A stretch of DNA of 64,000 bases from an uncultured Candidatus Saccharibacteria bacterium (lineage in GTDB: Bacteria > Patescibacteriota > Saccharimonadia > Saccharimonadales > CAZVRA01), in contig CAZVRA010000001.1 in the NCBI GenBank assembly GCA_964630055.1, positions 174,483-238,482 of the forward strand. Direction: 5' to 3'. Position numbers and translations under genes: made by a program. Under the pieces are notes generated by a model. That model saw only the letters and a program-made list of their open reading frames with translations. It had not been told where the DNA came from and did not search any database. Positions 1,348-30,126 of the stretch are shown piece by piece (position 1 is the first letter of the stretch; each line of letters begins with the position of its first letter).

Positions 1348-1839
1348 ATGAAGAAATTTACTCAAAAATATACCATTGTTCAGTTTTTCGATCCCATTGA
1401 CGAAGGGTACGAGTATTCATCAGACAGTTGGCCGCTTCACTCTACAATTGTTGATACATTTGCGATTGATTGGTCTGTTGATGAGATGGTTGCAAAACTA
1501 AGAGAGCAGTTAGGTAGTCACGCACCAGCTGAGTCGGTAGCGGAAGACGATAGATTCTTCGGTGAAAATGGACAAGTTCAAGTAGTTCTTCTTAACCGAT
1601 CAGAGAGCCTAGTTAACCTGCACCTCGATGTATTAACAGCGCTAGTGGACGGCGGGCTTACACTCAATGATCCACAATTTGCGCGTAATGGATTTCTGCC
1701 ACATGCAACCGTACAGAAGCACTCACGCCTCAATAAAGGTGACGAGGTTAAATTCACGGCTCTAAGTATCGTAGACATGTTCCCAGACGAGGATGCATAC
1801 AAGCGGAAGGTACTTAAGACCATCAAGATCGGCGTCTAG
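1348..1839 (+). CDS. 2H phosphoesterase superfamily protein (LigT / 2'-5' RNA ligase-like)
   Basis: Two H-x-T/S-x motifs (PLHSTIV and LPHATVQ) about 80 aa apart in a 163-aa protein, as is typical of the 2H fold. Confidence 0.4.
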   Translation: MKKFTQKYTIVQFFDPIDEGYEYSSDSWPLHSTIVDTFAIDWSVDEMVAKLREQLGSHAPAESVAEDDRFFGENGQVQVVLLNRSESLVNLHLDVLTALVDGGLTLNDPQFARNGFLPHATVQKHSRLNKGDEVKFTALSIVDMFPDEDAYKRKVLKTIKIGV

Positions 1840-1843
1840 AAAA

Positions 1844-2789
1844 CTATAGTTCTTTTTGACCTCGAGAAGTAAGCATTGTAGCAGTTGAACGATGCGCCGA
1901 GCATACTGACTGTTCTGGTGACACTCCTTCAGATAGCTTGATCGTAAACTCTGCACTGAACATATCCCCAGCCCCTAAGGGGTTAATGATCTCTCTATCA
2001 CTCAATGGTCTATCTGTTGGTATGTCTGTGGATTCTCCATCCTGAACTAGAGTGGCTCCATGCTTTGCTCTCGTAACAGCAACTGCCGTGTTTGGACATT
2101 GTTTACTCCAAGACACAGTCGTCTCTAGAGCGTCATCGATATCCTCATCTGAAATAATGACCGCATCAAACAAGTTCAGGATATTCGGATTAGTTAATGT
2201 TCCCCGTGTGATACGAGCATCGTCCATCTTCCTTAGCAATCCTTGTGGTATAAGTATCTTTTTACATTCCATACTTGTGTGACTCACCGTTTCACTGATA
2301 TATGCGTCCGAATAATTAGGAATGTCGGGTGCTACAATAAGAATGTCAGCACTCGCTATAAGTGCACTTATAGTCCTGTCTATATGAACGGGTAGGCTGT
2401 TCTTAGGGTTTGGACATAGGGTTTGGACAGTATTGCGTGCGATGGCCATTCTCGACGATATTTCTGTAGATAAGGGTACTATCGCCTCTAGGCCTAGTCG
2501 CCATCACTGTAAGGTCACGAATATACTCTAAAAAATCTGTGCCGTGTTCAGTGATGATACGAGTCTTCAACCTGTACTGACGGGCGCAGTACGTCGCAAT
2601 ATATATCGGAGGAGGTCCCATGAGCGATGCGGCACACCCTCTATTATGATTGTTATCGGTGTATACATGGCCAATAGTAACGACAGTAGGAGTGTGCGCT
2701 ACTTGCATCTGGTTACCAATGTCGTCCATCCTCCTCAATCTCTGCGATGACAACACGGTGATCTGAGACCTTGTCTTCAAGGCGAACAA
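1844..2789 (-). pseudogene. PfkB-family carbohydrate kinase split by a frameshift (ORFs 2403..2789 and 1844..2449 overlap by 47 nt in different frames)
   Basis: The downstream ORF carries the PfkB C-terminal signature (INPLGAGDMFSAEF, compare DTxGAGD). The upstream ORF has an N-terminal GG-type region (TIGHVYTDN...GCAAS). The two frames overlap at CPNP. Confidence 0.35.
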
Positions 2790-3414
2790 CTGACCTAAAA
2801 GAGAATTTTTTAGGTATAGCGATGTAATCTAGCGTGATATTATTTTTCGGAATTGATATACTCCAGTTCGTCTGAAGACAAGGCATAACTCTTCAGCAGC
2901 TAGCTTGAACATGCTGAAGTCACTCGTGATTACTGGCTAAACATCCTTCGCTATGCAAAGCTCGACCAGCTCCCCTGAGTGCTCGCTCGACTCTTGATCG
3001 ATGTTACCAAAGTGTATATTACATACACTCGTTATCTGGCCATCAATATCGATGACTGCGAATAGTGCAAAACATGGCTCACTGAAGTTAGTTCCTTGCG
3101 AAAGAAGGTATAATTCACTTGAGACTACAGGATGTCTGGATAGTAAGGCTAGTCCATGTGAGTGGCCTTTTGTTAAGGTTCGTCGTCTTGGGTGTCGATC
3201 TTTTCGAAACGAAGGCGTGTATATTATATAAGGAAAGCTACCTTCTCTTGTTAAGTAAGTGGCTTGCGAGATAGGTGACCTCGCCACATCAAATTGGACC
3301 TCCTGTAGCGCAACGACATCTGGCGACTGTCTATCAAGGAGAGGGCCGCTTTTTTACAAGCACCCTATTGCTCGTACCCCCCAAAAAAAATTTAGCGTCA
3401 TCAATTTGGTCATG

Positions 3415-4770
3415 CTAGATGATTATCTCCTTGTCTCCGTAGTACTGAATGGCCTTACTCCTAGTCTCGGGGGATGTGTTGGTGTTACGTGTAACAAGTT
3501 TTGTAAGGTATGCCCCTTTTTCGTTTTCATACAACCAATCAGCCAATGATGACAGTATAGAGTCGAATACGTAAGGGCAGCAGGCAACCGCCATTAATGC
3601 GCCCCATGAGCGATCGAGCGATTGTTCCATCAACTCGTTGGCGATCTTCCTCATACCCTCCCCGTCTACTCGGCCTGTAGATGCATACCACACACAAAAG
3701 GAAGCTATGGAATGAGGATATTCAGACTCTCCGCGAATCAGTTCGAGGCAGAGTTCTGGCAATTCTTCGGGCGTAGCTTGTAAGACTTTATTAAAAGATG
3801 TTGCAGCAGGATGTTCAGAGAGCACCTTAGTTAACATAGTGTCGACGGTATATTCAAGCTCTTGTCGTGCAGCTGAGTATGCTTCGATAAACTGTTTACT
3901 ATCGTTGATACCCCACGCCTGGAACTTGTCTTTACAGAATTCGTAAATAGCCTCTAGGCTCACTGGGGATACGTACCGGTTGCGCACATCACCGGTCATA
4001 TCATAGACAGATATTGCCGCGTTCTTGACCGTAAATAGTAAATTAGTTGCCTCAAATGGAGCGCGCAGGCCATATCGCTCCTTGGCGTCCATCATGACTT
4101 CTGGCAGTTCTGGGCTTTCACCTCTTATGGCGGGAAAATTACCAGTACTCATGCGTGAGATCATATTAAAGAAAATAGTATCTCTGCTAGACCCAGTACT
4201 GTATTTTAGATTTGGCCCCATGTTTGTCGTTTTATTCGGAAAGTCAAAATAACGATAGAAGAAATATTCACTAATATTGTTTGCAAGCTGATGGTCAGCC
4301 GTATTCGCCTCAAGAATCATCTCGCTTATATCGTCAGCCGGAACATGCCCGACCATTCGTCCATCAATGAAGCGATTGGCATCTACGAGCGAGTAGTTTA
4401 ATAAATTGTGCAGCCGCTCCTTATTAATATGCCCCACCTCAAACTTATCAACGCCGTCAACTCTAATATCACTCTCAACATAATTATCGTCGTTATATAC
4501 AACAAAGAGGTCGATATCAGAATTCGGCAACATCTCACGACGCCCAAGTGAGCCTCCGACCCATAGCTTCAAGCCAGGATACTGATTTGAAAGCTTATTG
4601 ATATACTCTTCGGCTGCGGTAGACATCTCTGCCATTGCATCGAATGTCGTGTAAGACGGATCTTTAAAAAGGCGCTCAGCAACATCTCGCCGTATCTCGC
4701 CAAAATCACCCGGTACTTCCTGAGCGTGTTCAATATCAAAAGTAGTCGACGGTTTTTCAATTCCATTCAT
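3415..4770 (-). CDS. Pol-beta superfamily nucleotidyltransferase with a large C-terminal helical domain (451 aa)
   Basis: GSLGRREMLPNSDIDLFVV fits the GS-x9-DxD nucleotidyltransferase motif. Confidence 0.5.
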   Translation of the reverse strand: MNGIEKPSTTFDIEHAQEVPGDFGEIRRDVAERLFKDPSYTTFDAMAEMSTAAEEYINKLSNQYPGLKLWVGGSLGRREMLPNSDIDLFVVYNDDNYVESDIRVDGVDKFEVGHINKERLHNLLNYSLVDANRFIDGRMVGHVPADDISEMILEANTADHQLANNISEYFFYRYFDFPNKTTNMGPNLKYSTGSSRDTIFFNMISRMSTGNFPAIRGESPELPEVMMDAKERYGLRAPFEATNLLFTVKNAAISVYDMTGDVRNRYVSPVSLEAIYEFCKDKFQAWGINDSKQFIEAYSAARQELEYTVDTMLTKVLSEHPAATSFNKVLQATPEELPELCLELIRGESEYPHSIASFCVWYASTGRVDGEGMRKIANELMEQSLDRSWGALMAVACCPYVFDSILSSLADWLYENEKGAYLTKLVTRNTNTSPETRSKAIQYYGDKEIII

Positions 4771-5479
4771 TACAGAGCCTCTCTATAATGTTTTCATAAT
4801 CCGTAAGAAGATGAGCCATCTCTTCACGCGTGTAGTTTTTGTCATATTTAGTAATTTCTATCAGTGCAGCTCGCGAACCCTTACTGAAAGGATAAAGTCG
4901 TTTTATGTCATCCTGAGCAGACCTATTAGTGATGTGCGAGATGTTCTCGGCTTTTTCTTCACCAAGATAGACAAGAACGTCCTTGAATAATTTGAGACTG
5001 TACTTCTTGAACCCAAGCGTATCGTTCGTCTGCTGGATGGCCATTACGCGAAGTCTCGATAGGTATTCTCGTGTCGTAATTAGCAATGATGGACGTATGT
5101 CCTCTAGCTTCAGCCGACTTACGATATTTTCATAGACATTTTCCCCGTACAGAACCTCTCCAGCGGCGAGTACGTACATAAAGAAAAGGCTCTTCGTACC
5201 ATCATGGAATATAATGTCGCCATTCTGATTGTATATGTCTTGCATATACATAATGCTTAGGTCGAGACTTGGATAATCCTCTAGGATTGTGTTTATTGCA
5301 ACTGTGAGCGCATACGAGGGTTTATCAAGTACAATCTGCAAGTCGCAGTCTGAACGACTATGTACATCTTGATTATTCCTAACAGAGCCAAAATAAATAA
5401 CTGATTTAAGGCTTGCTTTAACAAGCGCATTAGCCGTTAGGCGAGACGTGATCTCTTTAGGGAGTCCTCTATTTGCCAT
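4757..5479 (-). CDS. Nucleotidyltransferase-domain protein (ANT/LinB-like, 240 aa)
   Basis: FGSVRNNQDVHSRSDCDLQIVLD fits the GS...SDxD NTase motif. The gene overlaps the upstream gene by 14 nt, so the two are probably co-transcribed. Confidence 0.45.
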   Translation of the reverse strand: MANRGLPKEITSRLTANALVKASLKSVIYFGSVRNNQDVHSRSDCDLQIVLDKPSYALTVAINTILEDYPSLDLSIMYMQDIYNQNGDIIFHDGTKSLFFMYVLAAGEVLYGENVYENIVSRLKLEDIRPSLLITTREYLSRLRVMAIQQTNDTLGFKKYSLKLFKDVLVYLGEEKAENISHITNRSAQDDIKRLYPFSKGSRAALIEITKYDKNYTREEMAHLLTDYENIIERLCNEWN

Positions 5480-6094
5480 TTAATTAATCTTCTCCACGTT
5501 TTTTCCTACATACTGCAATGCCCAGCCATCCCTGCTACGAGTAAACAAACTTATTGATGTATTATCAGGGCGTGTTTGATATGTCTGTGGGTGTGACCAA
5601 AATTCGATTTTTGATGCAAGGCAGCGTATAGCACCTCCATGTGTGAAAGCAAACACGCGCCCACTGTCTGATATTGAGTTAGCCCATTCATACATTCGAT
5701 TACCTACATCGTTAAACGACTCGCCGCCAGGAGACCTAAATTCTTTTCCTAGCCTGTCAATCTCGGCAACTTGTTCATCTGTAAACACCTCGGTCGCTAC
5801 GCGTCCGACCCATTCACCGACATGCTGTTCCTGTAGACGATCGTCTTCAGTGATTGGAATATCGGTCATCATAGCATCGAGTGTATAGCGAGCTGTCTGG
5901 GCGGCTCGTACTGCTGGCGAAGCATACACTACATCAGGGAGTAGCTCGGCTCTTAGCAAGGCCGCGCCTAGTCTGCGTGACTGTTCAACGCCTCTTTCTG
6001 TCAGTGGAAAGTGATTACTACGGCCCGCAATGTAGTTATGACGAACATTATTTGCCGCCTCTCCATGTCGTATGAGATATAGCTCCGTACCCAT
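5480..6094 (-). CDS. Histidine phosphatase (phosphoglycerate mutase family)
   Basis: N-terminal LYLIRHGEAANN carries the RHG catalytic motif. A second His lies in the C-terminal FTHGGAIR segment. Confidence 0.6.
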   Translation of the reverse strand: MGTELYLIRHGEAANNVRHNYIAGRSNHFPLTERGVEQSRRLGAALLRAELLPDVVYASPAVRAAQTARYTLDAMMTDIPITEDDRLQEQHVGEWVGRVATEVFTDEQVAEIDRLGKEFRSPGGESFNDVGNRMYEWANSISDSGRVFAFTHGGAIRCLASKIEFWSHPQTYQTRPDNTSISLFTRSRDGWALQYVGKNVEKIN

Positions 6095-6099
6095 GGTTG

Positions 6100-7104
6100 T
6101 TAGATAAGTCGTCCTAAATTAGTAACGCCCAGCACCTTGCGATCCTCGAAGGACTGTCGAGCTAGCAGGGCAAGATGAAGTGCGATTCGAGCATCTTCAA
6201 TATCTGGTGCTGGTTGAGTGTTGTTCTTGATGGCAAGCGCGAATGCATCTATCTCTGCGGCATATGAGTCGCGAAATATGTCGATCACCCCGGGTGCTAG
6301 CTTATTACGAAGTTTGAGCGTTACGCCATCATCTTGTCCATGACCTATTTGTATAATTCCATCAGTTCCAATAATCTCAGCGGCTATATCGTATCCGTAT
6401 GAAGCGTAGCGACTCCATTCGGTGATCGCCATAGTATCATTGGTCATATATAAGGTAGTAGAGCAAGTATCTATATCGCTATACTCTCTTAGGCCAGTGT
6501 GAACTAGCGCTGCACCCGTTGCAGAGATTTCCAAAACCTCTTGACCTAGCAAGAACCTAGCCGCATCATAATCATGAATAGCTGCGTTCAGGAAAAGGCC
6601 ACCATTCTTACCTAAGCCCCAGTTTGCTGCGTTCGATGCGTTCGGGTCGCGGCCGTGGGCCTTAAAAAGAACAGGCTTGCCAATCTTACCGTTGACAATA
6701 GCTTCTTTTGCAGCTAGGTAGCGAGGATCCCAGCGACGCTGGAAGCCAATCTGAAACTTAACTCCAGCATCTACGACATATTGCAATGCGTCATCAGTTT
6801 CTCGCATCGTGAGACCAATCGGCTTCTCGGTAAATATATGCTTACCTGCTCTAGCTACTGATTTTATATGCTCAACATGAAGGTAAGTGTTTGATGCAAT
6901 CACAACACCGTCAATTGGTTGGTTCAGGAAATTGTCCAAGTTGTCGCAAGTAAGTGTATCGTATTGTTCTTTAACGCTATTTAACGATTCAGGATTCGTG
7001 TCGCACACGGCAAAAAGTTCAGAGTACTTTGAATTGTTGATATTCTTCGCGTGGATGGAGCCAAGACGACCGTATCCAATTAACCCAAGACGAACCCCAC
7101 TCAT
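6100..7104 (-). CDS. Gfo/Idh/MocA-family NAD(P)-dependent oxidoreductase
   Basis: N-terminal Rossmann segment VRLGLIGYGRLGS and the family EKP motif (IFTEKPIGL). Confidence 0.65.
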   Translation of the reverse strand: MSGVRLGLIGYGRLGSIHAKNINNSKYSELFAVCDTNPESLNSVKEQYDTLTCDNLDNFLNQPIDGVVIASNTYLHVEHIKSVARAGKHIFTEKPIGLTMRETDDALQYVVDAGVKFQIGFQRRWDPRYLAAKEAIVNGKIGKPVLFKAHGRDPNASNAANWGLGKNGGLFLNAAIHDYDAARFLLGQEVLEISATGAALVHTGLREYSDIDTCSTTLYMTNDTMAITEWSRYASYGYDIAAEIIGTDGIIQIGHGQDDGVTLKLRNKLAPGVIDIFRDSYAAEIDAFALAIKNNTQPAPDIEDARIALHLALLARQSFEDRKVLGVTNLGRLI

Positions 7105-7215
7105 CTACCCGACCTCCGTACCATTAACTTTAATACTTGTTTCTGTGGACTTGATATTTTCGCTATTATAGCATATCATTGTACTATATACAACCCCTGA
7201 CAGAGAAGGAAAACT

Positions 7216-8433
7216 ATGGCTGGACCAGGTGCATACAGCTTTGGTGACGAAGAGCGAAAAGAAGTAATAGATGTCCTCGAAAGCGGACACTTATCTCGTT
7301 ATGGCAGCCTCGACGATCCAAAGTTTAAGCATAAGGTCTACTCTTTAGAGCAAGAGTTTGCCAGCTATATTGGCGTGCAACATGCTATAGCAAATAGCTC
7401 GGGGACGGGCTCGCTGTTCATATCACTACTTGCACTTGGACTACAGGAGGGTGACGAGGTACTGGTTCCTGGATATACATTTGTAGCATCGATCGGATCA
7501 ATAATTTATTCTCGTGCTACACCCGTATTGGTTGAAGTAGATGAATCACTCACAATGGATCCGATCGATCTCGAGGAGAAGATTACAGAGAGGACAAAGG
7601 CGATTATGCCCGTCCATATGCTCGGTAATCCTTGCGATATGAATGCTATTATGCATATTGCCGAGAAACATAATCTCTTTGTGATCGAAGATGGTTGCCA
7701 GGCTGCTGGAGGATCATTCAAAGGGAAGAAGCTTGGCACCTTTGGTGATATAGGCGCATTTTCTCTGAATCAGCACAAGAATATCGCTGCTGGCAGTGGA
7801 GGTATAATCGTTACCAACGACAATGCTCTGTACGAGAAGGCATTTGCCATTAGCGACCAAGGTCACATGCCAAACAGAAGTGGCAAGGAAGTTGGTAGCA
7901 GGAGTATTGTAGGTCTCAATTTCCAAATGAATGAACTATCTGGTGCAGTTGCGTTAGCTCAAGTAAGAAAACTAGACGGCATGCTTCAGGTTTTGCGCGA
8001 CAAGAAGTGCCAACTGAAAAATCTCATCAAGGAAGCAGACATCCCCGGCGTTGCCTTTAGAAAAATTAACGATATCAATGGTGAATGTGCGACAATGCTG
8101 ACTATAATTTTCGACACCAAAGAAATGGCGGATAGAGTCAGTAAACAGCTTGGCAGCATGCCCTTGTCAGAATCTGGCTGGCATGTCTATAGCAACATGG
8201 AGCAAATTAGCGGGCATAAAACACCTACAGATGGCTGGTCTTCTCGAGGAAGGTTTGTCAATGCAGGCGATCTGCCTAAAACAGATGATATTCTAAGTCG
8301 TAGCATTAATATTAGCGTAGGTGTTGTTGACGGAGGACTTGGATCAGCATTTGGCATCAATATTCATTCAAGTGATGACGATATAAGAAGTGTAGCAAAC
8401 AGCTTTATAGCCGCATGTCGGTATTCGTTATAA
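7216..8433 (+). CDS. DegT/DnrJ/EryC1/StrS-family PLP-dependent sugar aminotransferase
   Basis: Family-typical GDIGAFSLNQHKNIAAGSGGIIVTND segment with the PLP lysine. The overall length is about 405 aa. Confidence 0.7.
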   Translation: MAGPGAYSFGDEERKEVIDVLESGHLSRYGSLDDPKFKHKVYSLEQEFASYIGVQHAIANSSGTGSLFISLLALGLQEGDEVLVPGYTFVASIGSIIYSRATPVLVEVDESLTMDPIDLEEKITERTKAIMPVHMLGNPCDMNAIMHIAEKHNLFVIEDGCQAAGGSFKGKKLGTFGDIGAFSLNQHKNIAAGSGGIIVTNDNALYEKAFAISDQGHMPNRSGKEVGSRSIVGLNFQMNELSGAVALAQVRKLDGMLQVLRDKKCQLKNLIKEADIPGVAFRKINDINGECATMLTIIFDTKEMADRVSKQLGSMPLSESGWHVYSNMEQISGHKTPTDGWSSRGRFVNAGDLPKTDDILSRSINISVGVVDGGLGSAFGINIHSSDDDIRSVANSFIAACRYSL

Positions 8434-8472
8434 ATAGACTTAAGTGGGTGAGCTAGTTTATAATAATATCCA

Positions 8473-10167
8473 ATGGTAAATTTAATACAAATTGACAAAC
8501 TCTATAAGAAGTATATAGATACCTACTCGGATGATGCAAATAAACTGAACTTGTTAGCGGAACAACTTCAACAAGCCGATGAAGATATAGTGTCTCGCAA
8601 GAACTTTGTCGGACACGTTACTGCCAGTGCTTTTGTTGTCAATAAATACACTCGTCAAGTACTGTTACTTCGTCATAAATCACTTGGTAAATTACTACAG
8701 CCAGGAGGACATATTGATGAGAGTGATGGGTCGCCCCTCGAAGCAGCGTTACGTGAGGTTGAAGAAGAAACTGGTTTAAAGAGTGAAGATTTGGAACTAA
8801 GAACCGTTTTCAAACACTTTCCTAACGTGCCTTGTCACATTGACACGCATTTTATCCCCGAGAATCACCGCAAGAATGAGCCGGGGCATTATCATCATGA
8901 CTTTCGTTACTTATTTGTGACAGAAAAATCCGATATAACAGTAGATATTAGAGAGTCGAGTGGTTTTCGGTGGATTGATTGGGGTGTTTTTGTTGATGAC
9001 CCACATTTTACTACTGTTGTTGATAGGATTGAAGGATTGCTTGAGTCAAATCCTCGTGAATTTTTCAGATCAATAGTCGATAGAAGTGGTAAAAATATAT
9101 CTGTGATAGCCGTATCTCACATTATACCAAGCTCAGAGAACTACATCCTTGCTTTACAGGAAAATTTTAACCTCATAGGTATTATCCCGAAGCCAAATTC
9201 AATAAATAAAAAAACTTTATCTTTATTAAAAGATCATGATGTAGCTATACTAGATCAATTTACGCGTCAAAACATAGCTGATAACTCCGGGGAGCTAACA
9301 GACATGCTTATAAGTTACAATAATATATGCATGATAGATATTGGGGGGTATTTTAGTGAAAGTATTAGAGTGATCAAGAAGAGACTGGGCAAGAGGCTCA
9401 TTGGGATTGTGGAAGACACCGAGAATGGACATCAAAAGTATGAAAAGAGTATGACAGACGGTATTCGTATTATATCTGTTGCACGTAGCCCCCTGAAAAG
9501 CTTTGAAGACCAACTCGTTGGTAATGGAGTTGCTCATGCTGCTGAGACTGTCTTACGTAATCTAAACATCCTAATTAATTATAGAACCTGCGGTATCATA
9601 GGTTATGGTAAAATCGGAAGGGGCATATTTCAATACCTACAACAGCGTGGTATACGTCCTTATATATGCGAAATCAATCCGATGCGTGCCGTGCAAGCAT
9701 CTTGTGACGGTGCGATAGTGGTATCAATTCATCGCCTTTTGAGAAATAGTGATGTTGTTTTTTGCGCTACAGGATCTAGAGCCATCAATATCCTTAAATT
9801 TCGTGACTTGAAAAGGGGTGCATTCTTGGCATCAGTAACATCCTCGGATGATGAATTTGATTTACGATTTATTGATAGCGAATATGTTAATGAAAAGATA
9901 ACAAGTGATATCACAAAATATTCAAAACTTGGTCATCATTTTCATATCATTAATGACGGAAATGCTATAAATTTCTTGTATTCTGCGGCCGTTGACCAAT
10001 ATATTTATTTAGTTCAAGGTGAATTAGTCGCTAGTATAGTAAGTTTATTCCAGGATAAAAATAAAAAACCAAGGATAAAAAGTATCCTAACTAATCCTAT
10101 AGAAGTTCAGTATCATATAGCAGATAACTGGTTTAGTCATATCATCAAAGGAGACAAGGCATCTTAA
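8473..10167 (+). CDS. Fusion protein: N-terminal Nudix hydrolase plus C-terminal S-adenosylhomocysteine-hydrolase-like (NAD-binding) domain
   Basis: Nudix box GGHIDESDGSPLEAALREVEEETGL. The C-terminal GIIGYGKIGRGIFQYLQQRGIRPYICEINPMRAVQASCDGAIVV aligns with the AdoHcyase NAD domain (GYGDVGKG...ITEIDPINALQA). The mid-region IVEDTENGHQKYEK / SVARSPLKSFEDQLVGNGVAHAAE resembles AdoHcyase VSEETTTGVHRL / [21 protein letters not shown]. Confidence 0.5.
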   Translation: MVNLIQIDKLYKKYIDTYSDDANKLNLLAEQLQQADEDIVSRKNFVGHVTASAFVVNKYTRQVLLLRHKSLGKLLQPGGHIDESDGSPLEAALREVEEETGLKSEDLELRTVFKHFPNVPCHIDTHFIPENHRKNEPGHYHHDFRYLFVTEKSDITVDIRESSGFRWIDWGVFVDDPHFTTVVDRIEGLLESNPREFFRSIVDRSGKNISVIAVSHIIPSSENYILALQENFNLIGIIPKPNSINKKTLSLLKDHDVAILDQFTRQNIADNSGELTDMLISYNNICMIDIGGYFSESIRVIKKRLGKRLIGIVEDTENGHQKYEKSMTDGIRIISVARSPLKSFEDQLVGNGVAHAAETVLRNLNILINYRTCGIIGYGKIGRGIFQYLQQRGIRPYICEINPMRAVQASCDGAIVVSIHRLLRNSDVVFCATGSRAINILKFRDLKRGAFLASVTSSDDEFDLRFIDSEYVNEKITSDITKYSKLGHHFHIINDGNAINFLYSAAVDQYIYLVQGELVASIVSLFQDKNKKPRIKSILTNPIEVQYHIADNWFSHIIKGDKAS

Positions 10168-10248
10168 TGATAGTAGGCGGGATATCCCACAAATTATGCT
10201 CTAAAACCTTTCAAGCCATAAGAGTAAACCAATACCACAGTATAAAAT

Positions 10249-11328
10249 ATGAGTATAGATCAACACTACCGACCAACTCCCGAAAAAGAATTAGGTAAAT
10301 TTGACCAAGACCCACAGCTTCTAGGCCTTATAGACCAAGAGAGTCTTGAAGTATCTATGCAGGATCCGTCATCAATTCTTAATGAGCGCTCAGGTTTTCC
10401 TGCTATAGTCCCCCTGAAGTACGCTACTGAAGCCAACCAGGTTTTTTTGCAAGATGGCTATGAACCATTTTTTATCGACTTCTACAACTCTGGGCTTAGC
10501 GAAGACGCAGAAGGTTTGAAGGGGGTTTTGAGCAAAATTACTCCTAAATCATCAATTGCGATCGAACTTAGGCATGAAGACACCGGGAAAGTGGAAGAGA
10601 TAAAGCAGGCCATGATTAGTATGGATCGACGTGCTGTGGTGAGCCCGGGTGTTTACGATGCAGAGTACGGCACTTTGGCGTCGGTTACTCACTTTTTTAG
10701 CGATTTAAACTTTGAAGATAGGCCAGGTCCGGATTTCGAGAGCTTGGATCAATCTTATGAGCATTTAGGATCGTCTGGCGAATGGCAGAAAATGTTCGGT
10801 GACAGTGTTAAATATGTGAGCGGAGATAAGATTGATCCAGATCTGCTGGAAAAACTGTGGTATACATACGACAAAACATTCGATAAACTTACACAAAACC
10901 ATCCTTCGGCACAGAAGCAGCCTCGAGAATATTTTGATCAGCAGATCTTACTACCCGAGTCCAAGATCATATATGTAGAGAAGGAAGGACGAGTAGTTAG
11001 CGAGCTCTTTTTAATAGATGGCCTAGAAGTTTGCCCATGGTTAAATAAAGACTACTTCGACAAGCTAAACCCTAGAGGCAGGACAGTTTTTAGCCCAGGA
11101 ATATCTACAACCTTAGACATGCAAGGTATGAACTTTAGCGAACTTACCATTCGAGCCATGTCTGAACTTGGCCGCAGAGTACCAGGCTTGACGGGCTTTG
11201 CAACGCAATGCACTAATCGCTCAGAGAATTACGTACCCGTTTTAGCCAACAAATTCACTGAAGGAAGTGCCAACTTGCAACTTAAAGAGACGGCTTGCTA
11301 TGACTATCCAGTGCTACTTATTGACTGA
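10249..11328 (+). CDS. Hypothetical protein (359 aa)
   Basis: Long ORF with no recognisable motif. Confidence 0.3.
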   Translation: MSIDQHYRPTPEKELGKFDQDPQLLGLIDQESLEVSMQDPSSILNERSGFPAIVPLKYATEANQVFLQDGYEPFFIDFYNSGLSEDAEGLKGVLSKITPKSSIAIELRHEDTGKVEEIKQAMISMDRRAVVSPGVYDAEYGTLASVTHFFSDLNFEDRPGPDFESLDQSYEHLGSSGEWQKMFGDSVKYVSGDKIDPDLLEKLWYTYDKTFDKLTQNHPSAQKQPREYFDQQILLPESKIIYVEKEGRVVSELFLIDGLEVCPWLNKDYFDKLNPRGRTVFSPGISTTLDMQGMNFSELTIRAMSELGRRVPGLTGFATQCTNRSENYVPVLANKFTEGSANLQLKETACYDYPVLLID

Positions 11329-12262
11329 GATTAACAGTATACATTTTATGAATTTCTACTGGTTTCAATAGTTCTTTGTGCCTGCGTATACCAGGAATAT
11401 TCGCGTCACGCTCAAAGTTTATATAGTCAATTCCTTCTTTCTCCATCTCTTTAGAGAGCAAATGCCAAAAATAGTCACTTGCATTCTTAAACTTGTATCC
11501 TGATCGAGCATGGTGAATATTTATATACTTTTTACCACCGTTATTTAAGTATGAAAATATATAAATATATTGAGGTTCATCATCAATCTTTCCTATTAAT
11601 GCACTAACGTTATACTCTTCTGAGAAAGCTACAATGTTAGCAAGTACGTTACCTTCCGCCCGGTCTGGGTCATTACCAAATATAAAAGTACTATCCCACA
11701 GATGATGCGCGTTAATGATTTCTACTTTACCTCTATGTGAATGTATGTCAATCTTATCCAGTCTTATGTCTGTTTCAGGGTTGTCGCGTTTAAACAGATT
11801 TATCTCACGTCTTATTCTGCGGTAGCTCGGGTCCGCAAGAGACGAATGTTCTTTAACGCTATAGATATAGTCACATAAACCCAAGTCATATTTTACTTGA
11901 GCATTATCCCCTAACATGGTTTGGATTTTATCCAAATGAGGCTCTGATATAACAAGCTGAGTTCTGGGTACGATTAGTAAATTTCTTACAAACAATAAGG
12001 CTTCAGGTGTTAATTCGCCTATGTTGCCAATAGTTGTTAGGTTGACAACATCGGTGTCACTACCGAGTATATCTCTGAAGTATACTAAAAGTAAATTTTT
12101 TGAAAGGGAACAAACTTTAGCTGGCTCCAAATAAGATAGCCATGTATTTAGTTCTGCAAAAGAATAGTCTGCACTAGGATGGGGATGCTTAGAATAATAA
12201 TGCATATACGCGTCATAATCATTCTTAGAAATATCTTTAAAATATGGATATTTTGGCAACAT
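11318..12262 (-). CDS. Hypothetical protein (314 aa)
   Basis: Long ORF that converges on the previous gene. No motif recognised. Confidence 0.3.
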   Translation of the reverse strand: MLPKYPYFKDISKNDYDAYMHYYSKHPHPSADYSFAELNTWLSYLEPAKVCSLSKNLLLVYFRDILGSDTDVVNLTTIGNIGELTPEALLFVRNLLIVPRTQLVISEPHLDKIQTMLGDNAQVKYDLGLCDYIYSVKEHSSLADPSYRRIRREINLFKRDNPETDIRLDKIDIHSHRGKVEIINAHHLWDSTFIFGNDPDRAEGNVLANIVAFSEEYNVSALIGKIDDEPQYIYIFSYLNNGGKKYINIHHARSGYKFKNASDYFWHLLSKEMEKEGIDYINFERDANIPGIRRHKELLKPVEIHKMYTVNLSQ

Positions 12263-21755: not shown

Positions 21756-23255
21756 TTGTCATTGCGCTGCCAAGCACGCATAATTAAAGGTATGGGCAAG
21801 GTTAAAAGAGGTGTGGCCTGGTTATTGGGGCGCTGTAAACACAGTGTTTGGCTGTGGCTGAGCGGCGTTTTGGTGGGCCTGTGCATGGTGTTGTACCGGA
21901 GCGAAGGGCTACTATTTTGGTGTTTGTGGCCCTGTTTTTGGTATTTGCTGCGGGTGTCGCGGAGTTGGCCCAAAAATCGTCATCGCTTGCCGGCCGATTT
22001 GTACGTTCTTGGACTTATCATTTGCTTTTTTGGTAATTTCTTTATTTTACAGGTTTCGGCTGGCAATTGGACCATGAATCTAAGCAGTTGGCTAGCAGTA
22101 TGGGCGCCCCGGCTGTCGCTGTTGCTGATTTGCTTGTTTTGCGCGCTTAGTTTTTGGCTGATAGGTTGGTTGTTGCAACATATTAACAACTCATGGCACA
22201 GAATTGCTAGCTTAGTTTTTTTGTGGCCGTTGGCCGAGCTGCTACGTAGTTATTTGTTTGCCATCATGGCTTATGCGCCGCATGGCAGCCTAAGTCCAAA
22301 TTTTAATTGGGGTGCTTTGGCAGTTCCGGCCGCTGGCACTGATCTGGTTTATGCTTCGACCTTGGTTGGATTTTTTGGTTTGTCGGCAGTGGTCGTAGCT
22401 GTTAACCTGGGACTTTGGATTTTTTTGCAATCAGCTGTTGGCTGGGTGTGGCACAGGTTTAGGCCAGCTGTAAAAAATGAATCAACACCTTTAGGTCCTG
22501 TATCCCGCGTTTACATATTGAAGCTGGGCATGGTACTTTTGGCCACCAGTGGTCTGCTGACGCTTGGCGGACGGAGCCTTTTCCGCCATAGATTTCCGGC
22601 CAAAACCAACGACCTAAAAATTGTGGTGGTGCCGCTAAACGAGGACCAGGCTCTAAACGACTGGCCAGAATCGGACTGGCCGCCTGTGGGCACTGATCTG
22701 TTGGTGACGCCGGAGTATTCGGAGCTAATGTCCAATCCTCGCTACAAAGAAATTTTGAGCCGTTTGTCCGAAAACGGGGTTGCCATAACCACTATTCGAG
22801 CTGGCCGTTCGCCGGGTGGTACTAACCAGCTGGTATTTTTGAACCGCCAGGGCGAGGTGGTCGAGCGACAAGACAAAACCTTTTTAATACCCACCGGCGA
22901 GACATTACCGTATAGCTTGCAGATTAGTTTTAGAGCGCTGCACAAATCTCATACGAGCCAGAGTTTTCGCTACATCCAGCAAGTGACGGCTGGCAAGCAG
23001 CCCGAGCGGCCCTACGATACCGGCAAGTTTAAGGTGGGCGCTTTGGCCTGCAGTGGTGTTAGTGCACTGAGCGAATATAGTCGTTTAACAAAAGAAGGCG
23101 CTGATGTTTTGGTCAACAGCGCCTCTTTGTCCTTTTTGCAGCCCGACAGTTTTTACCATGTTTATGCCGGCAACATGGCCCGCTTTCAGGCGGTGTCGAA
23201 CAGCCGGCCACTAGCTCAGGCCAGCCGCAGCGGCCAGAGCTATGTTATCTACTAG
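21756..23255 (+). CDS. lnt: Apolipoprotein N-acyltransferase-like protein (CN-hydrolase domain, multi-pass N-terminus); true start may be the internal Met near 21792
   Basis: N-terminal TM helices. LLVTPE, DKTFLIPTGE and GALACSG correspond to the Lnt Glu/Lys/Cys triad motifs (LVIWPE, KxxLVPFGE, ICYE). Confidence 0.45.
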   Translation: MSLRCQARIIKGMGKVKRGVAWLLGRCKHSVWLWLSGVLVGLCMVLYRSEGLLFWCLWPCFWYLLRVSRSWPKNRHRLPADLYVLGLIICFFGNFFILQVSAGNWTMNLSSWLAVWAPRLSLLLICLFCALSFWLIGWLLQHINNSWHRIASLVFLWPLAELLRSYLFAIMAYAPHGSLSPNFNWGALAVPAAGTDLVYASTLVGFFGLSAVVVAVNLGLWIFLQSAVGWVWHRFRPAVKNESTPLGPVSRVYILKLGMVLLATSGLLTLGGRSLFRHRFPAKTNDLKIVVVPLNEDQALNDWPESDWPPVGTDLLVTPEYSELMSNPRYKEILSRLSENGVAITTIRAGRSPGGTNQLVFLNRQGEVVERQDKTFLIPTGETLPYSLQISFRALHKSHTSQSFRYIQQVTAGKQPERPYDTGKFKVGALACSGVSALSEYSRLTKEGADVLVNSASLSFLQPDSFYHVYAGNMARFQAVSNSRPLAQASRSGQSYVIY

Positions 23256-23261
23256 GCTGTT

Positions 23262-24845
23262 TTATCTAATTTGTTTGCCGTCCCATTTTGCATGGTAATT
23301 GGTTGCCTCCGCTTCGAAAAATCCTCTTTTAACGTACATAGATTGATTTGTGAAATAAGTATTGCACTCACTTAATGTTGTGTTGTGGTATATGGTTGAT
23401 CTATTGCCACCACCTCCTAGTGCGTTATAGAGACCTGCATCTTGTTTCCAGCTTATCACGCAATCAGCTCTTTTTTCTGGCGCCTTGACTACGCCGTTAT
23501 TAATCTCACCAGTTGACACGGTAGTGCTTGTTCGGCCACTAACACTATCGGCATTTAATGCGCCTGGAGCGCCGTTCTTGGCTTTAACACGTCGCTCATT
23601 TGCTGCACTGGTTCTTTCTTTCTCCGCTGCTTGAGCAGGGGCGCTGTTATTATCGGCATTTTGGAAGCCTGGAGGGCCGTTATTTTTAGCGTTGATTCGG
23701 CGTAGGGCAGCTCCGCCGTCGTTGGCTGGAGGCGCAATCGTGGTTTTAGGCGCGACCGTGGGATTTACTGGCTTAGCCGTGGCAGAACTAGCTGCTTTTG
23801 CGGCTGCTGCGGGGTCGTTTGGGTTAGCCTTAACGGCTGCTTGAGCGGCAATTATTTTAGCATTTTCGTTAGCTTTAGCCTGTCTTTCGGCCACACAGGT
23901 CGGTCGGTTCATGATTTCTGGTGCGGAACAGTCACGCATGTAGGCGTTCCATCTATCGTTACAGGCTTGGTCAAACTGTGATGGCTGGGCTTTTTGGTAA
24001 TCTGTTAGGTTGTTAGGGCAGGTGGGACCAACAGGCATGCCGTTAGCGATGGATTTATTGAGGTTTGCCCACTGGGCGGTGCATCTTGAGGCGTTCTCTA
24101 ATAAAGAGCAGTCATAGAGATCAGGCTTGGGCTGTTCGTTTGGAGGGGTCTTGACCTGGTAGTTAGGCGGGTATGCCCAAAAAGCTATACCAGGCATGAC
24201 GGCATCTATTCTCCAGCCATCAGGCTCGGTGGCGCCTTCGGCCAACCTTTGATCAATCCAGGTTTTATCTACAGAATAGATAGACTTAGACTTTGCGCCG
24301 CCCGAAGTTATTCGATAAACTGGTACAGTACCGGGGCGGTGGCCATCGGTCCAGGCAAAGAAGGCAACTCCTTCTTGCTGTATGTCGCCATTACCGTTAT
24401 ATTTGGCTTCTTTTTGGCTTTTTTGGTCGGCGGTTGCCCATTCATGCCAAGTAAGCTTGGCATTGTACAGTCTGTAAACCGGCACTGCGCCATCTAACGG
24501 AGTGGTCGGTGCTTTAAAAATAGCGCCATATGCTTCACCCCATCCCTGCTCGCCAAGCGCCTTGTACTCGCCATCAACACTCAGAACTGAATCATAGGCT
24601 TGGTAGACGAGGTTGACATGGCAAATATTGGCTCCATCTTCCACTTGACAGTAATTTGGCTCTGCTCCGGCAAAAAACATAAAGTAGGCACCAATGCCGG
24701 CAACCAGGGCAGCGGCAATTAGTATAACTTTTTTGCTAAATTTGGGACGCGATGACAAGAGTGTCCCAATACCGCCACTACGCACAGCTGGGCTGGACGA
24801 CACCTTGCGGACGGGCTTATTTTTTATTGGGCGAGATGAAGGCAT
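23262..24845 (-). CDS. Membrane-anchored extracytoplasmic protein of unknown function (527 aa)
   Basis: N-terminal basic region plus a TM helix. Repeated VPVYR(L/I) motifs. Ala/Pro-rich linker. Confidence 0.4.
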   Translation of the reverse strand: MPSSRPIKNKPVRKVSSSPAVRSGGIGTLLSSRPKFSKKVILIAAALVAGIGAYFMFFAGAEPNYCQVEDGANICHVNLVYQAYDSVLSVDGEYKALGEQGWGEAYGAIFKAPTTPLDGAVPVYRLYNAKLTWHEWATADQKSQKEAKYNGNGDIQQEGVAFFAWTDGHRPGTVPVYRITSGGAKSKSIYSVDKTWIDQRLAEGATEPDGWRIDAVMPGIAFWAYPPNYQVKTPPNEQPKPDLYDCSLLENASRCTAQWANLNKSIANGMPVGPTCPNNLTDYQKAQPSQFDQACNDRWNAYMRDCSAPEIMNRPTCVAERQAKANENAKIIAAQAAVKANPNDPAAAAKAASSATAKPVNPTVAPKTTIAPPANDGGAALRRINAKNNGPPGFQNADNNSAPAQAAEKERTSAANERRVKAKNGAPGALNADSVSGRTSTTVSTGEINNGVVKAPEKRADCVISWKQDAGLYNALGGGGNRSTIYHNTTLSECNTYFTNQSMYVKRGFFEAEATNYHAKWDGKQIR

Positions 24846-28291: not shown

Positions 28292-28358
28292 ATTGGTGCG
28301 CTAGCCTGGTATTGACGGCCATAATGTGTTAAAATTATACCTGTTTTTTAGCATTTAT

Positions 28359-28433
28359 GGCCTCATCGTCTAACGGTTAGGACACCAGGTTTTCATCCTG
28401 GCAATCGGGGTTCGATTCCCCGTGAGGTCACCA
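28359..28433 (+). tRNA. tRNA-Glu (anticodon TTC), CCA encoded
   Basis: Cloverleaf folded by hand. Acceptor stem 7 bp with one G-T pair, D-stem 4 bp, anticodon stem CCAGG/CCTGG, loop TTTTCAT, T-arm CGGGGTTCGATTCCCCG, discriminator A then CCA. Confidence 0.85.
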
Positions 28434-30126
28434 TAAGGTCTTTATGACCGGCCATCAAGTCTAGCAGCGAATTCACCCCTGTAAAAAGGGGTGTTTTCGT
28501 GTTTCCAGTTTTTAAATCTTCGTAAGTTGGCATTTTGTTGAAAAGTGCTCGGAATAACAGCGATTTTTTAACCTGTGACCCCTGTTTTAACAGTAGTTCA
28601 TCGAGGTTTTCCAGGAAATATTGGACTCTGGTTATCGCACGCTCAATTTTTTGGTCCTTTTCGTCTTCTGTACCAGCGACTTTTTTGGCCTCCAGCGCCA
28701 GTACTTGTTTTTCTATACGCTCCAGATCCTGCTCTAAATATGTCAGTGCTGTTCGGTTTGTTAGGACTTTGAGTTTGTTAATAACCATCTCTGCCTCGGT
28801 ACGTAATGCAGCTATTCGGTCATCTGTGTTCTGTATTTCTTCCAAGGCCTCTTCGCGGTGTTTCTCGTACAGTTTTCTAACCAGCGCCATAACGTTCTCT
28901 ACGTGCTCCTTGGGTACAGTGAACTGTTTTATAAACGCATCGACACTGTCCTCAAGCTCGTTTTTCGACACCCTAAAGTAGTGGCCGTGGTTACTGCAGT
29001 GGTAGGCTGGGTAATACTTACCGTTACGACCTTTTGATGCACTGCCCAGCAGGGGTCGCTCACACTCAGGACACAAAACAAAGCGTCTGAACGCGAATTC
29101 ATCCGACTTCTTGCCACGATTTATGACATTCTGTGGAGCTTTGGCCTTGGAGATGACATAATCTCCTTGCTCGTCCACTGCAATAATTTTTTTGCCACGA
29201 TTAGCCTTATTGAATAGAGATATGCTGACCAGGCTATCGAAGGCACTTTTTATAGGTTTGCCATCAGTCCACTTCTCACAAAGTATCCCAGCATATAAGG
29301 GGTTATTGAGCAGTTTATGCATAGCTTTAATGGTAAGGGGATCACCACCTATATGCCTGACTATTTTTGTCTTGTCGTGTTTGTCACGAATGTTCCGAGT
29401 GCGCGTCTTGAAGCCCAGGTTGTTTAGTTTGTCCACAATTTGCTGGTCAGTTAGGTAGTTCTCGGCACGCATTGTAAACATCTTTGTTATAAACTTCGCC
29501 TCATCTGGATGTGGTCTGAGCACCGTTCGTTTGCCGTGCTGCGTATCTACTTTTTCACTAGTAAAACCATAGGGCGATTGGCGCATCCAATAACCAAGTT
29601 GGGTGTAGCGTATTTCTGCACCTATGACTCGGCTCAATATGTCTCTGAGCTCATCCTTAGACCGCTCAGCCTCCAGTATCTCCGACTTCTTGGTGGGAGA
29701 ATACACGCTCCAGTTGTACTCAAAGCCCAAGTGGTCTAGGGTATTTACCTTCTGGTTACTTATGACTCCATAGATGTCTACCAGCGATACGCCGGCACGC
29801 TCCAATTGCAGTTTGAGCGGGTTATACGTATCCGAGCCGCCACGCGTGAACCTGTCGATTGATTTGATGATAAATAGGTTTATACCGTTCTTTGGGTTCT
29901 TGCAGTAATCTATAGCCTGCTGTATGGGTTGCTGTTCTTTGCTGGCCGACTCCAGGAACACGAAATACTGCTTAATGGTAATGCCGCGGCTTTCAGCAAA
30001 ACGTTCTATCTGCTCACGTTGGGCCTCGGGCGAGTCTCCATCGGTGCCTTGTTTGGTGGTTGAAACTCGGATTGCCGCTACCGCGTTTACGTTAGCCTTC
30101 TGCAACATGCCCAGCCTCCAGTTCAT
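28393..30126 (-). CDS. Large serine recombinase (integrase); the last 13 codons lie inside tRNA-Glu
   Basis: N-terminal resolvase catalytic motif AIRVSTTKQ...SPEAQ. About 577 aa with a Cys-rich zinc-ribbon segment (CPECERP...CSNHGH) and a C-terminal coiled coil. The C-terminal ...MVTSRGIEPRLPG* is the reverse translation of the tRNA T-arm and acceptor region. Confidence 0.8.
   Translation of the reverse strand: MNWRLGMLQKANVNAVAAIRVSTTKQGTDGDSPEAQREQIERFAESRGITIKQYFVFLESASKEQQPIQQAIDYCKNPKNGINLFIIKSIDRFTRGGSDTYNPLKLQLERAGVSLVDIYGVISNQKVNTLDHLGFEYNWSVYSPTKKSEILEAERSKDELRDILSRVIGAEIRYTQLGYWMRQSPYGFTSEKVDTQHGKRTVLRPHPDEAKFITKMFTMRAENYLTDQQIVDKLNNLGFKTRTRNIRDKHDKTKIVRHIGGDPLTIKAMHKLLNNPLYAGILCEKWTDGKPIKSAFDSLVSISLFNKANRGKKIIAVDEQGDYVISKAKAPQNVINRGKKSDEFAFRRFVLCPECERPLLGSASKGRNGKYYPAYHCSNHGHYFRVSKNELEDSVDAFIKQFTVPKEHVENVMALVRKLYEKHREEALEEIQNTDDRIAALRTEAEMVINKLKVLTNRTALTYLEQDLERIEKQVLALEAKKVAGTEDEKDQKIERAITRVQYFLENLDELLLKQGSQVKKSLLFRALFNKMPTYEDLKTGNTKTPLFTGVNSLLDLMAGHKDLMVTSRGIEPRLPG

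Follow-up and report, generated by a model that had tools for sequence, protein, structure and literature searches.

The locus examined here lies in a stretch of 64,000 nucleotides (hereafter the window) from an uncultured Candidatus Saccharibacteria bacterium, and its subject is a gene on the forward strand whose product joins a Nudix hydrolase domain to a domain resembling S-adenosylhomocysteine hydrolase (SAHH, or AdoHcyase). An open reading frame (ORF) running from ATG to stop occupies exactly positions 8473..10167 and encodes 564 amino acids (aa). The gene is considered real and conserved because it has 833 homologues (75% identity at E 1e-284). An AlphaFold2 (AF2) model computed from 24 diverse homologues reached a mean predicted local distance difference test score (pLDDT) of 87.6 and a predicted template modelling score of 0.72, and conservation within the family was read from an alignment of 24 diverse members. 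The ORF encodes a real two-part enzyme, an intact Nudix domain followed by a complete two-domain SAHH fold, with the following features:

8473..10167, forward strand: whole ORF, Nudix plus SAHH-like domain; the same architecture recurs in homologues down to 38% identity
8473..8613, forward strand: N-terminal helical extension (aa 1-47) with a conserved SRKNFxGH lead-in, typical of this Nudix subfamily; helices at 4-17 and 26-32 in the AF2 model, aligned in PDB 3fcm and conserved in the 24-member alignment
8614..8976, forward strand: Nudix domain (aa 48-168; Pfam PF00293); nearest solved structures 3fcm_A, 1jrk_A and 3f6a_A
8707..8778, forward strand: Nudix box, G79..L102, GHIDESDGSPLEAALREVEEETGL; R94, E95, E98 and E99 nearly invariant
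8887..8901, forward strand: HYHHD motif (aa 139-143); invariant columns in the 24-member alignment, found in 112 of 125 fusions
8995..9537, forward strand: SAHH-like substrate-binding half (aa ~175-355), including H216, KPxSI (240-244) and DIGG (289-292); Foldseek (~390 columns against SAHHs of 400-430 residues) and global hhalign to human AHCY
9412..9429, forward strand: EDTENG motif (aa 314-319) in place of SAHH EETTTG (E155-G160); from hhalign, invariant in the 24-member alignment and present in stand-alone, reverse-fused and STAND-fused relatives
9496..9510, forward strand: K342..D346 (LKSFED), matching SAHH catalytic K186 and D190; from phmmer to 1b3r and 7r39 and from hhalign, invariant
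9547..9975, forward strand: NAD-binding Rossmann half (aa 359-501) with GYGKIGRG (377-384) and E400, matching E243; Pfam PF00670 and sequence and profile alignments
9832..9855, forward strand: SVTSSDDE motif (aa 454-461) in place of SAHH NIGHFDVE; sequence and profile alignments and motif scan
9976..10164, forward strand: C-terminal helices returning to the substrate domain, with V507 for H353 and no NAD-capping tail (K426/Y430); hhalign ends at AHCY 403-409 of 432

A scan for promoters and terminators around the gene gave counts at or below the shuffled expectation, and a TAGACT-18-TATAAT arrangement at 8435-8464 is not counted as evidence.

By its profile match and motifs, the N-terminal domain is a bona fide member of the Nudix superfamily. 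Pfam NUDIX covers aa 48-168 (E 2.4e-13; 50.7 bits, cut-off 21.1), and the expected pattern of strands and helix is present in the AF2 model over residues 48-169. The Nudix box, which an earlier note made from the sequence alone had described as intact, does contain R94, E95, E98 and E99 within a domain that scores above the cut-off. It reads G79-x5-D85-x8-R94-E95-V-E-E98-E99-T-G-L, that is, REUxEExGU, and departs from the consensus Gx5Ex7REUxEExGU in a first spacer of eight rather than seven residues and in D85 for Glu; G101 and L102 are present. The strict pattern is matched by 107 of the 125 N-terminal fusion clusters. Invariant residues in this half are rich in histidine (H48, H80, H126, H139, H141 and H142, together with D143), and the cluster formed by HYHHD with H48, H80 and H126 may be an additional metal site. 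The nearest solved structures, 3FCM (Clostridium perfringens), 3F6A and 1JRK (Pyrobaculum), belong to the same Nudix subfamily and have in common with the window protein the helical lead-in at the N-terminus and, around the Nudix box, the motifs HxTxS, PGGH and HxHxD. All three are structural-genomics proteins to which no function was assigned and, unlike the window protein, they stand alone, without an SAHH-like partner.

The remainder of the protein (aa ~175-564) is predicted, from the AF2 model, to form a complete two-domain SAHH fold. Pfam AdoHcyase_NAD (PF00670) matches aa 359-501 (E 8e-18; 65.5 bits, cut-off 27), and the next-best Rossmann family, 2-Hacid_dh_C, is eleven orders weaker (E 8e-7). 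NCBIfam SAHH models match aa 200/270-501 and so span both SAHH halves, the best PDB match by phmmer is SAHH 7r39_A (E 2e-16; aa 280-549), and all of the top 50 Foldseek matches of the AF2 model to the PDB are SAHHs. These structural alignments cover 380-420 columns of targets of 400-460 residues, with target-normalised template modelling scores of 0.62-0.76 and 16-22% identity. Thus, the earlier assignment of the C-terminal ~390 aa to both halves of AdoHcyase was confirmed by the NCBIfam models and by Foldseek, and the alternative of a generic Rossmann dehydrogenase is at odds with Pfam, PDB sequence and fold searches that were all SAHH-specific. However, the NCBIfam equivalog cut-offs are missed (91.3 bits versus 275 for NF004005; 80.2 versus 497.6 for TIGR00936), and the residues of the active site, described below, indicate that the SAHH-like part is not an S-adenosylhomocysteine (SAH) hydrolase.

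Active-site residues were mapped by hhalign onto a human AHCY sequence whose numbering reproduces the published positions H55, D131, E156, K186, D190, H301 and H353; the alignments (probability 98.2-98.6) agree with the phmmer alignments to 1b3r and 7r39. In SAHH-type enzymes, the lysine serves in 3'-OH oxidation, Asp129 (human D131) in abstraction of the C4' hydrogen, and His56 and His299 act on the leaving group or water, as set out for AgmF (PMC8599513). The earlier note had found no obviously conserved catalytic residues, which holds for only part of the set. The oxidation residues are kept as K342 (K186), D346 (D190) and, conservatively, D315 (E156), all invariant in 24 diverse members, and the equivalents of D131, H301 and H353 are lost. 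Also kept are E314 (E155), T316 (T157), G319, T433-G434, N500 (N346) and GYGKIGRG (GYGDVGKG), as is E400, the counterpart of E243, an acidic residue that ends strand 2 and binds the adenosine ribose of NAD; this position is always E or D in the alignment. Within the SVTSSDDE motif, D459 and E461 correspond to SAHH D303 and E305, and S454, T456, S457, D459, D460 and E461 are invariant. H55 of SAHH is probably kept as the invariant H216, with which it pairs in a low-confidence stretch of the global hhalign alignment (probability 98.6) where the register of secondary structure is consistent.

Among the replacements, D131 becomes I290, next to an invariant D289 (D130); H301 becomes S457, a serine invariant across the clade; and the hinge residue H353 becomes V507. 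T158/T159 and N181/D182 are exchanged for E317/N318 and A337/R338, the adenine contacts T57, E59 and T60 for I218, S220 and S221, and the C-terminal tail, through which Lys426 and Tyr430 reach the NAD of a neighbouring subunit in SAHH tetramers, is absent from a protein that ends at aa 564. In their place there is another invariant set, comprising R338, E317/N318, S454/T456/S457 and K240/S243. At the level of sequence, then, the NAD site and the redox residues are kept, and the residues specific to hydrolysis and to adenine recognition are swapped for a different invariant set. As the adenine-contact positions are not conserved, an adenosyl substrate is not specifically indicated. The earlier suggestion that a nucleoside diphosphate conjugate is processed by the Nudix domain together with an adenosyl moiety is compatible with the data as a whole; its adenosyl part finds no match at the equivalents of T57, E59, T60 and H353.

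The Nudix/SAHH-like fusion is not rare. A check of its distribution in databases placed the architecture in a large family whose parts also occur split or in reversed order: at least 442 genomes encode a relative when one genome per GTDB species is scanned, and an exhaustive HMMER search of 1.84 billion representatives gave 368 clusters at E <= 1e-30. Among the matches listed, the holders are Saccharibacteria, other Patescibacteria and one Micrarchaeota archaeon; Bacteroidota, Clostridia, Chloroflexi, Planctomycetota, Bdellovibrionales and Methylomirabilales; and, in culture, Acidovorax, Paracidovorax and about 45 Streptomyces and relatives. The clusters include Nudix followed by SAHH-like, the reverse order (such as P0142, confirmed by Pfam) and many stand-alone SAHH-like proteins of 365-410 aa. 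Additionally, in four proteins of ~940-1,220 aa (P0194, P0207, P0248 and P0261) the SAHH-like domain lies N-terminal to an NB-ARC/STAND NTPase and DUF7779; a STAND-fused member occupies 5165-8659 of locus L094. A motif scan found HxxP, DIGG, EDTENG, LKxxED, GYGKIG, S[VC]TSxDDE and GNAVNF in all architectures but not in human AHCY, which marks the SAHH-like domains as one coherent clade, distinct by sequence from canonical SAHH. EDTENG, LKxxED and S[VC]TSxDDE persist at 30-40% identity in every architecture, which argues for a selected active site. Database labels of the relatives are inconsistent (NUDIX domain-containing protein, adenosylhomocysteinase, MutT, NAD(P)-dependent oxidoreductase), and full-text literature searches found no description of the fusion or of the clade.

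Coupling to a phosphohydrolase was counted in the 84 loci, out of 87, that have a classifiable SAHH-like match. The SAHH-like part carries the Nudix domain at its N-terminus in 34 loci and is followed directly by a gene of the same Nudix subfamily in 37 (30 in another frame, seven in the same frame), so that the two are fused or adjacent in 71 of the 84; the SAHH-like part occurs without Nudix in the other 13. In Streptomyces sp. BBFR51 (L084), for instance, the SAHH-like gene (9794-11089) and the Nudix gene (11086-11646) overlap by ATGA. Fusion in both orders, together with adjacency, is evidence of the Rosetta-stone kind for a joint action of the two activities. In loci without Nudix, another phosphohydrolase tends to replace it. 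On Lactiplantibacillus plantarum plasmids, 42 records of which have a match, genes for an MFS transporter, an HD phosphohydrolase and the SAHH-like protein follow one another in that order, the HD gene overlapping the beginning of the SAHH-like one, as in the three-gene operon of pL1708-2 (L088, 4948-8140). Similarly, an HD gene directly precedes the SAHH-like gene on Staphylococcus epidermidis plasmids and HD genes adjoin it in L010, L027, L035 and L039, and the Streptomyces operon described below contains a histidine phosphatase.

Neighbouring genes in other genomes often belong to nucleotide metabolism. NDK is directly adjacent in three phyla (L029, L033 and L035, from a Bacteroidetes, a Micrarchaeota and a Patescibacteria genome), where chance would be expected to give roughly 0.1 loci for a single-copy gene, by estimate. 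Adenylate-kinase-like or AAA_17 kinases adjoin in L001, L007, L008, L009, L011, L013 and L027, and a 2H phosphoesterase in L002 and L020; L006 contains a deoxynucleoside monophosphate kinase and a second Nudix gene. Two longer operons contain members of the clade. On the S. epidermidis plasmid NZ_CP121498.1 (L089, 267-9418), a stand-alone SAHH-like member belongs to a ten-gene operon that encodes LOG-family, ParB-N, flavin-monooxygenase-like (HpaB-like), Nudix, Xaa-Pro-peptidase-like, pyridoxal phosphate-dependent, PyrE-like phosphoribosyltransferase, HD, SAHH-like and MFS proteins; this content resembles that of a nucleoside-analogue pathway and parallels angustmycin biosynthesis. In Streptomyces, a long co-directional operon (L084, 2258-11646; ~40 other Streptomyces loci), syntenic across many species of the genus, encodes a TobZ/NodU-type carbamoyltransferase, a glycosyltransferase-like protein, a P-loop kinase, a methyltransferase, two APH kinases, His_Phos_1, the SAHH-like protein and Nudix; an SDR epimerase/dehydratase was seen in L047 and was not confirmed in L084. 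The methyltransferase of this operon is also found near the fusion in Acidovorax and Paracidovorax, and its carbamoyltransferase in a Levyibacteriota metagenome-assembled genome (MAG). No homology was detected between the P-loop kinases that lie beside the fusion in Saccharibacteria and that of Streptomyces.

Together, these observations suggest, tentatively and with a confidence somewhat short of even, that the gene encodes a bifunctional enzyme that would process a nucleotide in sequence, by a phosphohydrolase and then by an NAD-dependent, ribose-oxidising module. The architecture, the fold, the pattern of kept and lost residues, the distribution and the coupling by fusion and adjacency are results of the analysis, from which we infer the substrate class, the order of the steps and the chemistry that follows oxidation. 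In the first step, the Nudix domain would cleave a nucleoside di- or triphosphate, or a nucleoside diphosphate conjugate, at its pyrophosphate bond to give a product of the nucleoside monophosphate type, as suggested by a Nudix box that is intact and conserved across the family. In the second step, the SAHH-like domain, with its bound NAD+, would oxidise the ribose 3'-OH of the Nudix product to a 3'-keto intermediate, a step proposed because the full SAHH fold, the NAD(H) site and the Lys/Asp/acidic set are retained. The replacement of D131, H301, H353 and the adenine contacts points to a redox outcome other than thioether hydrolysis; the intermediate might undergo elimination or exchange at C5' with phosphate leaving, might be epimerised, or might be released as a keto or otherwise modified nucleotide. 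The product could then be re-phosphorylated or tailored by nearby enzymes, which in this genome may be a module of dehydrogenase, aminotransferase, phosphatase and nucleotidyltransferase, described below.

Several points weigh against this proposal. With no equivalents of D131 and H301, the chemistry could diverge from that of SAHH as early as the first half-reaction, and without conserved adenine contacts the substrate might be something other than a purine nucleotide, or might not be a nucleoside. De novo clustering and a Pfam scan of the 120 nearest neighbours found no fixed partner gene across ~35 diverse loci, and NDK is adjacent in only three of these. A few fusions have a truly degenerate Nudix box, such as P0073 and P0074 (in P0074 a separate Nudix gene lies directly downstream of the fusion), and a stand-alone member in Aeromonas has no recognisable phosphohydrolase neighbour.

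A broader proposal, which is more doubtful, is that the EDTENG clade and its phosphohydrolase (Nudix, HD or histidine phosphatase) form a widespread two-step machine that would make a sugar-modified nucleotide or nucleoside for use as an antimetabolite, toxin or signal. Candidate products include 3'-keto, 4',5'-didehydro, epimerised, deoxy or 5'-substituted nucleotides or nucleosides. Such a machine would explain the exporter-linked plasmid operons, the biosynthetic-type operons of Streptomyces, the Saccharibacteria module and the use of the domain as an output of STAND (NLR-like) proteins.

The neighbourhood of the fusion in the window bears on the alternatives. Upstream lie the following genes:

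1348-1839, forward strand: 2H phosphoesterase (Pfam)
1844-2789, reverse strand: PfkB kinase, frameshifted near 2406-2419 (Pfam; tblastn with L001 orthologues)
2734-3413, reverse strand: EEP phosphoesterase with two in-frame stops and a frameshift (Pfam; tblastn with L001 orthologues)
3415-4770, reverse strand: nucleotidyltransferase (NTase), 451 aa (Pfam/NCBIfam)
4757-5479, reverse strand: NTase-like protein, 240 aa, overlapping the 451-aa NTase (Pfam/NCBIfam)
5480-6094, reverse strand: His_Phos_1 histidine phosphatase (Pfam/NCBIfam)
6100-7104, reverse strand: IolG-like GFO/IDH/MocA dehydrogenase (Pfam/NCBIfam, PDB), nearest to inositol 2-dehydrogenases
7216-8433, forward strand: KdnA-like DegT aminotransferase (Pfam/NCBIfam); best solved relative the Kdo8N transaminase KdnA, E 1e-74 over the full length

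Among the matches listed, the closest loci to the window fusion are in Candidatus Saccharibacteria MAGs. Six Saccharibacteria loci (51-74% fusion identity) have both the module and the fusion, the latter on one side or the other, and this shared synteny suggests a functional link in this lineage. A tblastn search with the proteins of the window cluster against the 87 loci found the cluster only in the closest Saccharibacteria. A core of NTase, NTase-like, His_Phos, GFO and DegT genes, with no Nudix or SAHH-like gene, is also present in Blastococcus, Rhodococcus and a soil contig (L091, L092 and L093; 36-41% NTase identity), where 2OG-Fe(II)/PhyH oxygenases and a 488-aa protein of no assigned family are added and CHAT, TPR-S, RES, OLD-TOPRIM and AbiEi genes adjoin. 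The idea that the cluster is a unit that includes the fusion was rejected, since the NTase module occurs without it in Actinobacteria; the five-gene module (3415..8433) is adjacent to the fusion but independent of it. This module looks like an uncharacterised system of its own; its 451-aa NTase has no relative of solved structure and no match to a defence model, and belongs to a small family of 76 clusters. The PfkB and EEP genes of the window appear to be either pseudogenes or assembly errors, and L008 has no PfkB gene. An AAA_17 P-loop kinase gene lies between DegT and the fusion in L001 (7300-7893), L008 (9325-9921) and L009 (9325-9933) and is missing in the window, where the DegT-to-fusion gap measures 39 bp (8434-8472).

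Downstream of the fusion, a 359-aa ORF at 10249-11328 on the forward strand has no Pfam, NCBIfam or PADLOC match, and a convergent 314-aa ORF that slightly overlaps it (11318-12262, reverse strand, GC content 0.352) has a weak LPG_synthase_C/DUF2156-like match; neither has a counterpart in the related loci. The sole RNA gene found by ARAGORN and Rfam in the 64-kb window is a tRNA-Glu(TTC) at 28359-28433, and strongly negative AT skew occurs at 22001-24000 (-0.229), 28001-30000 (-0.147) and 50001-52000 (-0.130) against a mostly positive background.

One alternative drawn from this neighbourhood, which is unlikely, is that the fusion performs a dedicated step of an amino-nucleoside pathway in this genome, similar to those of puromycin or ADG, and that this pathway yields an antimetabolite or else a modified nucleotide for the two NTases. 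The roles would be matched by Nudix for Pur7, the NAD-dependent dehydrogenase for Pur10, DegT for Pur4 and the histidine phosphatase for Pur3. All four enzyme classes lie side by side in the window (5480-10167), the neighbourhood is kept in the six Saccharibacteria loci even as the fusion switches sides of the module, and this combination of Pur10, Pur4, Pur7 and Pur3 is known from the puromycin, A201A, cystocin and ADG pathways. However, besides the actinobacterial modules without a Nudix or SAHH-like gene, ~75 of the 84 fusion-family loci have no module; the aminotransferase is nearest to KdnA and the dehydrogenase to inositol 2-dehydrogenases; and in the window itself the PfkB and EEP genes are disrupted and the AAA_17 kinase gene is missing.

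A role in conflict or immunity is similarly improbable. The target would be an essential nucleotide or a molecule derived from NAD, which the enzyme would destroy or convert, or else a nucleotide signal, which it would break down; the Nudix fusion would be a constitutive or regulated version of this effector. The same domain, with all of the clade motifs, is N-terminal in NB-ARC/STAND proteins of ~1,200 aa, and the N-terminus is the usual position of the effector domain in STAND proteins, although STAND NTPases also serve non-immune outputs. P0194 adjoins an AbiEii gene, and has a 1,231-aa ankyrin-repeat protein and Dot/Icm type IVB secretion genes as further neighbours; the P0116 fusion lies beside smpB, between GmrSD/N6_N4 methylase and DndB/AlkZ-related genes; and many copies of the clade are plasmid-borne. 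The window gene also has an atypically low GC content (0.371, versus 0.41-0.48 in its neighbours), its DNA identity to L008 is 71%, versus 83% for the adjacent module, and synteny with L008 and L009 does not extend beyond its 3' end, all of which suggests faster divergence or replacement by recombination. Nudix and 2H domains recur in conflict systems based on NAD or ADP-ribose, but the conflict-system surveys examined (including PMC9503650, the source for that recurrence) do not mention the SAHH-like domain. A phage search gave two weak Nudix-only matches and found the SAHH-like part in no phage, and in the reduced genomes of Patescibacteria and DPANN many copies have housekeeping genes as neighbours (NDK, ribosomal protein S16, tRNA synthetases, MnmA). 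Searched against PADLOC-DB 2.0, the fusion and its neighbours, the NTases, the plasmid members and a STAND-fused relative reached a best E of 2.7e-4, to generic nucleotidyltransferase models, which counts against this alternative. Assignment to a known defence system was rejected, as PADLOC gave nothing specific.

Still less probable is a polyol or sugar substrate outside the nucleosides, such as inositol, an aminocyclitol or a sugar phosphate, with the Nudix domain cleaving a nucleoside diphosphate sugar in an aminoglycoside-like pathway. The loss of the SAHH adenine contacts would fit, as would window neighbours that are IolG-like or related to scyllo-inosose-type or KdnA-like aminotransferases, and a Streptomyces operon that combines the TobZ/NodU-type carbamoyltransferase, two APH kinases, glycosyltransferase-like protein, methyltransferase and SDR. 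Elsewhere, however, the recurrent neighbours are nucleotide kinases, NDK, a PyrE-like phosphoribosyltransferase and a LOG-family protein, and to our knowledge every characterised enzyme of the SAHH fold acts on nucleosides.

It is very improbable that the SAHH-like part is a non-catalytic sensor of NAD or a nucleotide that regulates the Nudix domain. Inactive SAHH paralogues with N-terminal extensions do exist (AHCYL/IRBIT), several catalytic residues are lost here, and the STAND fusions could equally be sensor fusions. Nevertheless, K342, D346, EDTENG and SVTSSDDE do not vary among more than 30 phylum-level lineages, nor in stand-alone proteins, which have no partner domain to regulate.

Finally, there is scarcely any prospect that the protein is a divergent but genuine SAH or S-inosylhomocysteine hydrolase of the methyl cycle with an accessory Nudix domain: its best sequence and fold matches are SAHHs and some relatives are annotated adenosylhomocysteinase, but its score of 91 bits falls well short of the NCBIfam equivalog cut-off of 275 bits, as its scores do by a wide margin for the other SAHH models, it differs from SAHHs at D131, H301, H353 and the C-terminal tail, structural-alignment identity is just 16-22%, and Streptomyces and Acidovorax, in which the clade occurs, have a canonical SAHH as well. 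Even AgmF, in which all canonical residues are kept, already fails on SAH (PMC8599513).

The analysis marks out a large clade that spans phyla, has a rewired active site and is physically or genetically tied to a nucleotide phosphohydrolase, and corrects the annotation of relatives now labelled adenosylhomocysteinase, MutT or NAD(P)-dependent oxidoreductase. If the proposed sequence of phosphohydrolysis and ribose oxidation is true, then it would represent a new NAD-dependent transformation of a nucleotide sugar. It would also provide a handle on nucleoside natural products in Staphylococcus, Lactiplantibacillus, Streptomyces and uncultured Saccharibacteria, and could add a new enzymatic output domain for bacterial NLR-like proteins.

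SAHH is among the most conserved of known enzymes, and only a few functional offshoots have been described (S-inosylhomocysteine hydrolase, AgmF and IRBIT). With canonical SAHH (AhcY; PDB 1b3r, 3x2f and 7r39), the window protein has in common the two-domain fold, GxGxxG with the acidic ribose ligand, Lys186, Asp190, Glu156 (as Asp) and probably His55. Unlike canonical SAHH, it has Ile for D131, Ser for H301, Val for H353 and EDTENG for EETTTG, lacks the tail, carries basic and polar residues that are newly invariant, and has Nudix as its fusion partner. AHCYL1/IRBIT also combines the SAHH fold with an added N-terminal region and has lost SAH hydrolase function, but it is eukaryotic and regulatory and its extension is a disordered PEST region, whereas that of the window protein is an enzyme domain and its active-site core is invariant.

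Closer parallels are found among the pathways of nucleoside antibiotics. Pur7, a Nudix protein, works with Pur10, Pur4 and Pur3 in pathways to 3'-amino-3'-deoxy-purine nucleosides (puromycin, A201A, cystocin, ADG). Here, the likeness is by enzyme class only (Nudix, NAD-dependent sugar 3'-dehydrogenase, DegT aminotransferase, phosphatase), the four classes being contiguous in the window; oxidation in the Pur pathway is carried out by Pur10, a separate, non-SAHH dehydrogenase, whereas the window enzymes are KdnA-like and IolG-like and their module also occurs without the fusion. AgmF of angustmycin biosynthesis is an SAHH-like, NAD-self-sufficient dehydratase that acts after the phosphatase AgmB (PMC8599513). 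By that description it resembles the proposed enzyme in its SAHH fold, in making no use of SAH and in tailoring a nucleoside sugar through transient 3'-oxidation following a phosphatase, and its cluster, with the LOG-type AgmA, the phosphoribosyltransferase AgmE and AgmB, resembles the S. epidermidis plasmid operon. In contrast to the window clade, which lacks equivalents of D129 and H299, AgmF keeps H56, D129, K184, D188 and H299, and it is not fused to a phosphohydrolase. Overall, the fusion resembles a pairing of Pur7- or AgmB-type dephosphorylation with NAD-dependent sugar oxidation of the AgmF or SAHH type.

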